Shown here: in pieces, positions 10,616-12,199 of the stretch
Layout of the letters: every line of letters begins with the position of its first letter
How positions within the stretch are numbered: the stretch's first letter is position 1
NCBI GenBank assembly: GCA_038239755.1
Contig: JBBSEL010000001.1
Span: 1-29,279, forward strand
Source of the DNA: Chloroflexia bacterium
GTDB taxonomy: Bacteria > Chloroflexota > Chloroflexia > QHBQ01 > JAICKM01
Length of the DNA stretch: 29,279 nt
Direction: 5' to 3'
Translations under genes and position numbers: made by a program
The notes under the pieces: generated by a model
Seen by the model: only the letters and a program-made list of their open reading frames with translations
Told to the model about the DNA's origin: nothing
Database searches by the model: none

Positions 10616-12199
10616 TCAGGCGCGGCCCAGCACGCAAGCGAGAGTATAGGCGTTGTTGCTGAAGGCGTAGACCAGGATGGGGTGTTGGGCCGCCGTGTCA
10701 CTGTAGAGTTGCTGGCCGAGCAGCGCGGCGAACTCTACCGGCCCGGCCACGAAGAGCCACACCGCGTCGGCCTCGCTGTGGTCCCACAATTCGCGCACGG
10801 TATCCCCGATGCACCAGGCCCAGGCCCGCGCCTGCTCGGGTGCGGTGATCGCCTGGCGGGACGCCCCGTCCACCGGGGCGGCGGTGAGTCGCCAGCGGGG
10901 GGGCGCGGGTGCCGTGGTCAGCCAGGCATCCACGGCGGGGGGCACCGTGCGCGCCACTGCGATTTCGAGGAGCACCGCCCGCTCCGCCCCCTCTTCGGTC
11001 AGCAGGGTCCTCGTGATGCGGAGATCATCGGCAGGCCCAGGCGGCCCCGTGCTGCTCACGGTCATCCCCTCCGGGTTGATCCAGCGCACCGGCACGCTGC
11101 CCTTCGGCGGGAACCGGTAGGCCAGCGCGACCGCCGCCGATAACCGCGCCTTCAGCCAGACCGTGAGCGGCACCGGGTACTGCTGCCTGGCGAGCAGCGC
11201 GTGGACATCGTCCAGGGCGGGCTGCAACTGTGCCTGCCAGCTTGCGGGGTCCGGGTCGCCCTTGGCGAAGAGCGCCGTCCAATCGCAGTCCAGGTGCAAC
11301 ACCTCTGCCGCAGCGGAGTAGGGAAAGGTGTGGAAGCTAACGACCAGGCCCTGCGCCTCCGCCTGTGCCCGCGCCATCCGCCCGGCCAGGGCACCCCGCA
11401 GCACGCGCGCATGGAGGGGCCGTCCCCCTACCCCGATAGGTGTCTGCCAGGAGAGCGGCTGGAGTGGGGTGAATACCTCCACAGCGGTTTGGGCCTTGGC
11501 CTGCCAGGCCCCCATTGGTGGTAGGAGCGGGACGATGGCAAAAGTCGCCTCCACCGCCTGTCGGGCGAGCGCGGCCTGCGCGGCGGGCTCCCACCATCCG
11601 GCGGTCTCCCATCCCTTCCGGCCCACATAGAAGACGACCGCATCACAGCCCCGTGCGACGAACCCTGCTAACCCCTGCCCCACCGGCAGCGGTTCTTCGG
11701 TCTGGCTCCAGCGCACCCGCAGCCCCCGCAGCCGCCACGCCGTCGCCAACTCGGCCACCGCCCCCGCGTCGTTGGGGTGCGATACGATCAGCACCGTCGC
11801 CGGATCGGCGGGTGTCAGATCGGTGCGTGCCATTGCGGGAGGGAGGTTAGGTACCGATGGCAGCGGCGTCGCCGTGGCAGGCGTAGTCAACTCAGTGCGG
11901 AGCGCTTTGAGATCGCGCCCCGCATTGCCGCCGCGCCCATGAAACAGCGCGTTCTCCAGCAGGACCAGCAAGGCCGGGGTGCCGTCGTCCAGCGCGCCCC
12001 ACCCTTCCACGGCCCGTATGATCGCATCCAGGTCCACACTGATAGTCGTTGAGCGCCCCACGCCGCGCACCAGCGCAGGCGGCAGATCATTCAGCAGCAG
12101 CGCGCGCCCCTCGATAGTCTGAAACACCGGCAAATCGGCTAGCGCGGTCAACAATCGCTGGCGTTGGGCGCGGGTCAATGTGAGATCAGGCTCGGTCAT
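10616..12199 (-). CDS. EAD-like + TIR-like + SAVED fusion; candidate cyclic-oligonucleotide-sensing effector
   Basis: N-terminal ~100-aa helical domain (LLTALADLPVFQTIEGRALLLNDLPP...DLDAIIRAV) resembling effector-associated domains. Central TIR-like pattern (VLIVSHPNDAGAVAELA...GCDAVVFYV...FAIVPL). C-terminal SAVED signatures (KARLSAAVALAYRF; VWLFVAGPVEFAALLGQQL; ILVYAF...Y). Confidence 0.75.
   Translation of the reverse strand: MTEPDLTLTRAQRQRLLTALADLPVFQTIEGRALLLNDLPPALVRGVGRSTTISVDLDAIIRAVEGWGALDDGTPALLVLLENALFHGRGGNAGRDLKALRTELTTPATATPLPSVPNLPPAMARTDLTPADPATVLIVSHPNDAGAVAELATAWRLRGLRVRWSQTEEPLPVGQGLAGFVARGCDAVVFYVGRKGWETAGWWEPAAQAALARQAVEATFAIVPLLPPMGAWQAKAQTAVEVFTPLQPLSWQTPIGVGGRPLHARVLRGALAGRMARAQAEAQGLVVSFHTFPYSAAAEVLHLDCDWTALFAKGDPDPASWQAQLQPALDDVHALLARQQYPVPLTVWLKARLSAAVALAYRFPPKGSVPVRWINPEGMTVSSTGPPGPADDLRITRTLLTEEGAERAVLLEIAVARTVPPAVDAWLTTAPAPPRWRLTAAPVDGASRQAITAPEQARAWAWCIGDTVRELWDHSEADAVWLFVAGPVEFAALLGQQLYSDTAAQHPILVYAFSNNAYTLACVLGRA

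Follow-up and report, generated by a model that had tools for sequence, protein, structure and literature searches.

A stretch of 29,279 nucleotides from a Chloroflexia bacterium (contig JBBSEL010000001.1, positions 1 to 29,279 of the forward strand; hereafter the window) raises the question of what receives the signal of a type III-A CRISPR (clustered regularly interspaced short palindromic repeats) system when the gene beside it encodes a TIR-SAVED protein that has lost its catalytic residue. This gene, at 10616..12199 on the minus strand, encodes a protein of 527 amino acids (aa), referred to here as P0001, in which an effector-associated domain (EAD) of the EAD8 family precedes a TIR-fold domain and a C-terminal SAVED domain. 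In the reading favoured here, to which we give a probability of a little under 0.6, P0001 serves as a sensor-adaptor, or scaffold, of the adjacent type III-A system, which is triggered by cyclic oligoadenylate (cOA) and recruits EAD8 partners, rather than acting as an NADase. The idea that the EAD is the output is strengthened because the catalytic glutamate and many other TIR residues have been lost in P0001, and the glutamate in all EAD-fused relatives, and because EAD8 is the most constrained domain of the protein.

P0001 is encoded by a single intact open reading frame (ORF) with an ATG start and a stop codon at 10616-10618, as given by the ORF list and its translation, and the start coincides with that of its homologue P0002, which is 73% identical. 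The protein begins with the EAD8 domain, a predicted homotypic adaptor (aa 1-108; 11876..12199), which is joined through a flexible linker rich in Pro, Ala and Thr, recognized by its low predicted local distance difference test (pLDDT) scores (aa 109-132; 11804..11875), to the TIR-fold domain with degenerate catalytic motifs (aa 133-228; 11516..11803) and the SAVED sensor domain (aa 286-527; 10619..11344), all on the minus strand. A three-domain EAD-TIR-SAVED architecture had been proposed in a first-pass annotation of this DNA, and it has been borne out by Pfam, NCBIfam, profile, Foldseek and VIA comparisons, EAD8 and SAVED being recovered by Pfam and by structure and the TIR fold by profile and by structure. 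Each point of the first-pass interpretation that computation could address was supported. The best PADLOC model for P0001 is the SAVED_TIR effector, the match being confined to the SAVED part. Codon comparison of the P0001 and P0002 genes gives an overall ratio of nonsynonymous to synonymous substitution rates (dN/dS) of 0.27, with values of 0.13 for EAD8, 0.66 for the linker, 0.23 for the TIR domain and 0.30 for SAVED, all from this one gene pair with a dS of about 0.65. All three domains are thus maintained by selection, EAD8 being the most constrained, which argues against a decaying relic.

The middle domain is recognized through its relatives. None of the Pfam TIR models, including TIR_2, matches the TIR region of P0001, and direct phmmer comparison of P0001 with the Protein Data Bank (PDB) gives no match, a profile of relatives being required. 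With a profile of 42 homologues, the TIR-SAVED structure 7qqk is matched across both domains (E 1e-36), and the same profile also matches the TIRs of RUN1, SARM1, Cat1 and SPARTA. The EAD8 and TIR-SAVED parts were modelled separately with AlphaFold2 (AF2), and the model of the latter, built on the homologue alignment, has a pLDDT above 90 over aa 130-527. In Foldseek its top match is 7qqk_A (E 3e-16), while VIA aligns 7qqk with a Z of 29.5 over model residues 122-527 (384 residues), with the TIR N-terminal to SAVED in one chain, and gives TIR-only matches to SPARTA, RUN1 and SARM1 with Z of 11-12.7. Based on the profile, Foldseek and VIA matches, the middle domain of P0001 has a TIR fold.

In 7qqk, the catalytic residue E84 falls within the family motif W-x-x-E-x-P-A-A-L in the profile-to-7qqk alignment. 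At this column P0001 has Ala206, in the context G-W-W-E-P-A-A-Q-A-A-L, as placed by MAFFT, hmmalign, the profile-to-7qqk alignment and a check of the codon (11582..11584, minus strand). Two residues upstream of the catalytic column lies Glu204, the equivalent of E82 of 7qqk. It has been shown that the E84Q variant of the protein in this structure, MkeTIR-SAVED, is inactive both in vitro and in vivo despite the presence of E82 (bioRxiv 10.1101/2022.05.04.490601), and so a Glu at the -2 position does not rescue the enzyme. The loss extends beyond this residue, as P0001 keeps 8 of 19 conserved TIR columns (0.42), as opposed to 22 of 30 columns in SAVED (0.73), where conserved columns are those at least 75% conserved among Glu-bearing TIR-SAVED relatives; TIR column retention in the sister clade is 0.84-0.95. 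Among the 11 changed TIR columns are the Asp166 position, which is 97% conserved, and those of F-x-S-Y, and the conserved motifs F-x-S-Y, W-R-D and S...E-x-P are not retained as a set. From its sequence, the TIR domain of P0001 therefore looks catalytically dead, though it is under purifying selection.

The SAVED domain of P0001 has remained within the normal range of its family, its column retention being that given above. The first-pass annotation had read the C-terminus as SAVED, and two family models agree: NCBIfam NF033611 matches aa 288-524 with 70.1 bits (cut-off 33), and Pfam PF18145 matches aa 346-522 with 46.4 bits (cut-off 26.2). The modelled domain, a fused double CARF-like fold, has a pLDDT above 90 and is matched by VIA to Cap4, Cap5, CalpL and SAVED-CHAT with Z of 20-26. 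An aromatic residue has been kept at the position of the cA3 (cyclic triadenylate)-stacking W394 of 7qqk, where P0001 has Phe513.

At the other end of the protein, Pfam PF19961 (EAD8) matches aa 12-103 with 28.9 bits (cut-off 27), or 32.7 bits in the genome search, and many EAD8 domains share 40-56% identity with aa 1-108 of P0001. The AF2 model is a compact all-alpha bundle with helices over aa 10-105, where pLDDT is about 96 (88.7 overall). Foldseek gives no significant match with this model, and a wide VIA search of 48,161 chains, made independently of Foldseek, returns mostly CARD, DD, DED and PYD domains among its top 50 matches (Z 4.9-7.7), including the bacterial death-like domain 8ss1, with CARD-CARD assemblies as the best structural matches. 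These scores are modest and consistent, and suggest that the EAD8 of P0001 is a death-fold helical bundle, its homology to the death-like superfamily not being established by sequence.

In the adjacent CRISPR locus, a complete type III-A effector operon (csm1-5, cas6) is flanked by two CRISPR arrays, and comprises the presumed cOA synthase cas10/csm1 (2275..4701, plus strand), identified by the Pfam Cas10 palm2 and Csm1_B models and a motif check, and csm2, csm3, csm4, csm5 and cas6 (4698..9203, plus strand), identified by Pfam. The Cas10 of the window has GGDD at aa 589, and the motif check finds no HD motif in its first 250 aa; its N-terminus (window 2275-2900) is rich in Ala and Pro. Array 1 (1631..2184), with 8 repeats, is transcribed on the plus strand and has the same 3' handle as array 2. 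In the interval that separates it from the start of cas10, a promoter-like TTGACA is seen at about 2203-2235. Array 2 (9399..10397), with 14 repeats of 37 nt, is transcribed on the minus strand, and its intact repeats and AT-rich leader are at the end nearest the P0001 gene. On the minus strand the repeat of this array terminates in ...GGGGACTGAAAC, and because of this ending and the gene-proximal position of the intact repeats, array 2 is read as co-directional with the P0001 gene. A consensus scan places a promoter-like TTGACA-17-CATACT at the head of its leader (10544..10572, minus strand), beginning 44 bp past the P0001 gene stop on the same strand. The first-pass annotation had placed the gene about 45 bp from the array 2 promoter on the same strand, beside an operon whose Cas10 keeps GGDD and in a window with no Csm6, Csx1 or CARF gene, and all of this agrees with what was found: the distance is 44 bp, the operon is csm1-5/cas6 at 2275-9203, and neither Pfam nor PADLOC finds CARF, Csm6 or Csx1 among the window ORFs.

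Has the same combination been kept elsewhere? An exhaustive representative search yields about 75 TIR-SAVED relatives of P0001, while word-indexed homologue searches with P0001 and its profile find P0001 and P0002 alone. The catalytic Glu is kept in 39 of the 49 homologues that cover the TIR, and is absent from all five EAD-fused proteins among the 49, where the catalytic position is occupied by A, I or V. These five are P0001 and P0002 with EAD8, P0008 and P0010 with an N-terminal EAD1, and P0077 with a C-terminal EAD1; as the sequences are related, the co-occurrence of an EAD with loss of the Glu is a pattern and not a statistic. The other members that lack the Glu are P0060; P0026 and P0045, whose unassigned N-terminal extensions are not detectably EAD8-like; and P0137 and P0095, both on long branches. 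The genes around P0026 are uninformative. In P0060 there is an extra intact N-terminal TIR, and it is the SAVED-proximal TIR that is without the catalytic Glu, which would be a further way for an inner TIR to become a scaffold. TIR-TIR-SAVED architectures are seen in the metagenomic P0031, P0057 and P0060.

In the maximum-likelihood tree, the EAD8 proteins (P0001 and P0002) and the EAD1 proteins P0008 and P0010 form one clade (97 SH-aLRT, an approximate likelihood-ratio test), which is sister to the catalytic P0004-P0007, and P0077 is placed elsewhere; the combination of an EAD with Glu loss has therefore arisen at least twice. The clade is linked to CRISPR in all three of its informative contexts, namely the window, P0002 and P0008. 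On the P0002 contig, the gene is followed at about 45 bp by TTGACA and then by some 300 bp of leader, after which the contig runs out within the start of a related CRISPR repeat. In a Chloroflexia metagenome-assembled genome (MAG), the P0008 gene (contig JBBRPH010000087) comes directly after a cmr1-6 operon, and the locus at 1-13441 carries on one strand an EAD1-nSTAND1-WD40 gene, cmr1-6, the EAD1-TIR-SAVED gene with the Glu-less TIR, and then genes for proteins of 457 and 85 aa. Here a neighbour with a matching EAD (EAD1) is found, as the EAD1-nSTAND1-WD40 gene ends 20 bp before the cmr operon on the same strand and the two EAD1 domains of the locus are 36% identical (E 2e-17). The Cas10 of this locus has GGDD and lacks the N-terminal HD, as in the window. 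No CRISPR array is found in these 13 kb, and the 457-aa and 85-aa proteins have no Pfam match and no homologue in the MAG that hosts P0001. A profile search for related loci finds the P0008 contig alone among the genome contigs and none among the metagenome contigs. Upstream of P0010 a vWA fragment is visible, at the end of the contig.

The nearest catalytic relative, P0004, adjoins a SMODS/AGS-C CD-NTase, which is the arrangement of a cyclic oligonucleotide-based antiphage signalling system (CBASS). P0004 has 868 aa, including an unassigned N-terminal region of 460 aa, and its locus (4096-13971) places it between a type I restriction-modification system and the CD-NTase; it is a CBASS operon inside a defence island. 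From the CBASS link of P0004 and the CRISPR link of the EAD clade it follows that the wider family serves both kinds of system and that the link to CRISPR is specific to the clade. The expectation that homologues would be linked to cas10 is borne out for the clade of P0001, which is linked to type III or CRISPR loci in three of three cases; the wider TIR-SAVED family is also linked to CBASS, through the CD-NTase beside P0004.

The host genome, a MAG that is 71% complete and in 1133 contigs, encodes 12 EAD8 proteins, P0001 and 11 others, which make up a large EAD8 network that P0001 could join. Among the carriers of NTPase type are two nSTAND1 proteins (one with WD40), one NACHT and one cyclase-NB-ARC-TPR protein, and the rest are two WD40 proteins, one PD40 protein, two stand-alone EAD8 proteins, one protein truncated at a contig end and one EAD8-TCAD2 protein. 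An island on host contig C2 (3-8817) carries EAD8-nSTAND1-WD40 (3-2309, minus), caspase-TCAD2 (2699-4234, plus), the EAD8-TCAD2 adaptor (4324-5196, plus) and NACHT-HEAT (5242-8817, plus), followed by an IS66 transposase. The EAD8-TCAD2 gene lies between caspase-TCAD2 and NACHT-HEAT and is divergent from EAD8-nSTAND1-WD40, and this gene order makes a route from EAD8 through TCAD2 to the caspase plausible. The MAG of P0008 has 17 EAD1 and no EAD8 domains, as opposed to 12 EAD8 and 4 EAD1 in the host MAG. Likewise, EAD8 is the adaptor on the nSTAND1 paralogues of host contigs C202 and C2, and EAD1 that on their counterpart in the P0008 MAG; the adaptor type of the sensor therefore goes with the resident pool.

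Another genome of the same class (contig G391:C70) carries a CHAT-EAD2-SAVED gene (845 aa) divergently adjacent to an EAD2-caspase gene (Peptidase_C14, 388 aa), the pair lying at 3828-4994(-) and 5137-7674(+). No cas10 or CD-NTase is visible on this 8.7-kb contig. To judge by domain content, this is an independent case in which a SAVED sensor goes together with an effector that bears an EAD. Two further proteins combine related parts. On host contig C130, at about 989-2533(-), an nSTAND1 NTPase in an 817-aa frame has TIR_2 fused at its N-terminus and is a direct-fusion counterpart of the EAD8-nSTAND1 paralogues, and the metagenomic P0106 (287 aa) has an N-terminal TIR segment and a C-terminal EAD8, that is, a TIR effector with the same adaptor family.

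The host MAG has one SAVED and one Cas10. A second match to the Cas10 palm (on contig C200) is not a Cas10, being a GGDEF response regulator. The MAG yields no matches for SMODS/CD-NTase, Csm6/Csx1 HEPN or Cas_APE2256, and at 71% completeness the status of P0001 as sole effector is not demonstrable. The absence of Csm6/Csx1 HEPN and Cas_APE2256 is weak evidence, because the assembly is incomplete and the control genomes are silent for two of the families as well.

Taken in order, the favoured reading would work as follows. Upon binding of target RNA, the HD-less Cas10 would make cOA, most likely cA3 by analogy, which SAVED would bind and in doing so stack head-to-tail, with the dead TIR serving as a structural element or an oligomer interface. 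The tethered EAD8 domains would then cluster and nucleate homotypic assembly with EAD8-tagged partners, the candidates being the EAD8-TCAD2 adaptor, by way of the neighbouring caspase-TCAD2 gene, and the EAD8-nSTAND1 NTPases. By either of these routes, the CRISPR signal would pass to an apoptosis-like protease or NTPase network. Binding of cOA, formation of filaments and EAD-EAD recruitment by P0001 are all inferred. A bolder version, which we regard as tentative and clearly less probable than the favoured reading itself, is that type III RNA sensing seeds a bacterial signalosome, in which dead TIR-SAVED filaments nucleate EAD polymerisation and recruit adaptor-tagged caspases, STAND NTPases or both. 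Such an assembly would be a prokaryotic counterpart of MyD88 and inflammasome logic, set off by an adaptive RNA-guided sensor, with an adaptor currency common to the innate STAND sensors.

Several observations weigh against the sensor-adaptor reading. There is no second EAD8 gene beside P0001 anywhere in the 29-kb window, so that an adjacent cognate EAD is missing, and the 71%-complete MAG yielded no classical toxic effector that directly carries EAD8. The closest EAD8 paralogues of P0001 are uncharacterised EAD8-WD40 proteins (50-53% identical), and identity falls to 48% with the TCAD2 adaptor and 35-40% with the STANDs. Homotypic EAD-EAD binding is for all EADs a prediction derived from genomics, the coupling having been proposed by Kaur et al. 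(2020; PMC7159879), and the death-fold scores of the EAD8 model (Z 5-7.7) are within a range possibly generic for helical bundles, the support lying in the consistency of the hits. For the sensor domain, R388 of 7qqk, a tail-side residue required there for cA3-dependent multimerisation, aligns with Pro507/His506 of P0001, and this Arg is not conserved across the subfamily. SAVED of P0001 is a predicted cyclic-oligonucleotide binder, for which cA3 is the best guess by analogy because both characterised TIR-SAVED proteins use cA3. Finally, the clade is a small sample of four known members, three of them with informative context.

A first alternative explanation is that P0001 is still a conventional cOA-activated TIR NADase, in which Glu204 or a residue from a partner completes the active site and the EAD localises or regulates the enzyme. 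In its favour, the TIR domain keeps its overall fold at high pLDDT and, with a dN/dS of 0.23, is under purifying selection, Glu204 is conserved in P0002, a Glu is found at the same W+1 position in P0026, and TIR filaments with composite active sites are known. What makes it improbable is the E84Q result described above, in which MkeTIR-SAVED was dead despite a Glu (E82) at the equivalent -2 position, together with the 11 of 19 changed TIR columns (the Asp166 position and F-x-S-Y included), the failure of the Pfam TIR_2 model to detect the domain, and the non-acidic residues (A, I, V) at the catalytic position of all five EAD-fused relatives. The loss of the catalytic residue could also be taken to mean that P0001 is a decaying, non-functional TIR-SAVED remnant that happens to carry an EAD, an idea to which the rarity of the clade, with its four known members, and the nearby mobile-element genes lend some support. 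This is by far the least probable explanation and was already disfavoured, as two organisms keep an intact ORF, at 73% identity to each other and with synteny to the CRISPR leader conserved, dN/dS is 0.13-0.30 in the three domains as opposed to 0.66 in the linker, the SAVED motifs are retained, and the combination of an EAD with Glu loss has a repeated origin.

A functional P0001 could also be wired the other way round, with EAD8 STANDs recruiting it once they are activated, or could be a sponge or buffer for cOA or an inhibitor that keeps EAD8 partners inactive until or unless cOA is present, thereby tuning immunity rather than transmitting a CRISPR signal. Such a role seems unlikely, though less so than residual NADase activity. 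It agrees with the scheme of Kaur et al. (2020), in which a core NTPase carries one copy of an EAD and effector or signalling domains, SAVED among them, carry the others, with the presence of the STAND gene in the same gene string as cmr at the P0008 locus, and with the position of P0010 beside a vWA fragment and no visible cas10; a catalytically dead sensor could, moreover, simply sequester its ligand. Yet a dead TIR leaves a recruiting STAND nothing to deploy, a buffer has nothing to act upon, as no second cOA-responsive effector is found in the 71%-complete MAG, and a sponge has no need for a docking module as its most constrained domain. An HD-less Cas10 with an intact cyclase motif also implies a productive receiver.

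Directly upstream of the P0001 gene, the window carries genes of mobile-element type (12963-19700), which encode a 383-aa orphan, DUF4326, tandem helix-turn-helix (HTH), Bro-N and single-stranded DNA-binding (SSB) proteins. No integrase is seen in this gene block; an integrated element may carry or adjoin the defence locus. A DDE_3 family transposase lies near the window end, at 27538-28383(-). The STAND protein encoded at 20690-23524(-), with 944 aa and an HTH-NB-ARC/AAA-TPR architecture, was considered as a partner of P0001 and rejected as it is without an EAD; it probably acts as a regulator of the MalT/AfsR type and has no relation to the EAD8 network.

To our knowledge, all characterised type III ancillary effectors carry their own output, in the form of a nuclease, protease, NADase, membrane or transcription module that is joined to the sensor or cleaved by it directly. 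In P0001 a docking domain appears to have taken the place of an enzymatic output that was inactivated. If the sensor-adaptor reading is correct, an adaptive CRISPR sensor would feed the adaptor-coupled NTPase/caspase network that is used by innate STAND sensors in filamentous bacteria, which would amount to cross-talk between adaptive and innate prokaryotic immunity. It would also provide a first experimental handle on the function of EAD domains, document a catalytic-to-scaffold transition of a bacterial TIR that parallels the animal TIR adaptors, and offer a programmable RNA-triggered switch for protein recruitment.

The closest characterised protein is MkeTIR-SAVED of Microbacterium ketosireducens, a cA3-activated, filament-forming NADase (PDB 7qqk; Hogrel et al., 2022); other known TIR-SAVED effectors are TSR1 and the haloarchaeal H-TIR-SAVED. 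P0001 shares with MkeTIR-SAVED the two-domain body of TIR and SAVED and the aromatic residue at the W394 position, and by analogy is predicted to form head-to-tail multimers and to bind a cyclic oligoadenylate. In contrast, P0001 has Ala in place of E84, has lost many TIR motif residues, does not conserve R388, and carries an extra N-terminal EAD8 on a flexible linker, the identity between the two proteins being about 17%. MkeTIR-SAVED is, moreover, a CBASS effector that has been driven by CRISPR only experimentally, while P0001 is natively beside a type III-A locus. Scaffolding by an inactive TIR, together with a death-fold domain in which clustering would be expected to trigger polymerisation, is reminiscent of the animal TIR scaffolds MyD88 and MAL and of the CARD and PYD filaments of the apoptosome and inflammasome, a likeness that is structural and logical analogy only, given the modest Z scores of EAD8.

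For the adaptor side, the framework is that of the EAD-coupled, NTP-dependent conflict systems in multicellular bacteria described by Kaur, Burroughs, Iyer and Aravind (2020 eLife; PMC7159879), who listed SAVED among nucleotide-binding domains and made no link between EADs and type III CRISPR. EAD8 is one of their adaptor families, and as in their systems there are multiple EAD8 paralogues in one genome, on STAND NTPases, TCAD adaptors and signalling or effector proteins; the P0008 locus also obeys their adjacent-copy rule, with a matching EAD on the neighbouring nSTAND1-WD40. The case of P0001 is different in that the gene is tied to a CRISPR Cas10 cyclase, as opposed to a MoxR-vWA, GTPase or STAND core operon, and has no adjacent EAD8 partner in the window.

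The coupling of CARF and SAVED proteins to EAD/TCAD ternary systems near type III loci has already been noted bioinformatically (Altae-Tran et al., 2023 Science; PMC10910872), with CARF/SAVED genes found alongside vWA-MoxR-VMAP, TCAD9 and EAD7 (UAS-55/64/66). Those loci resemble the present ones in placing cOA sensors with ternary-system adaptors near type III genes, implying multi-protein cascades, and differ in that here the adaptors are EAD8 and EAD1 and not EAD7 or TCAD9, the sensor is a dead TIR-SAVED scaffold, and nSTAND1 and TCAD2-caspase are the apparent partners; both cases are predictions from genomics. A 2026 preprint mentions EAD-Csx15 fusions, and none of the papers searched combines TIR-SAVED with EAD1. 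What appears to be new is a TIR-SAVED protein whose enzyme has been inactivated and functionally replaced by a death-fold adaptor, and likewise the recurrent origin of the combination of an EAD with a Glu-less TIR-SAVED and its pairing with a STAND NTPase of the same adaptor type at a type III locus. One further system, the SAVED-CHAT/PCaspase of type III-B (PDB 8tl0; Steens et al., bioRxiv 10.1101/2023.06.23.546230), is similar in that cOA-induced SAVED filaments activate a cascade of caspase-family proteases and its SAVED is structurally similar to that of P0001 (Z about 21). In that system SAVED and the protease form one protein, which cleaves its target directly; P0001 has no fused protease, and any caspase would have to be brought in by way of EAD8 and TCAD2 adaptors.

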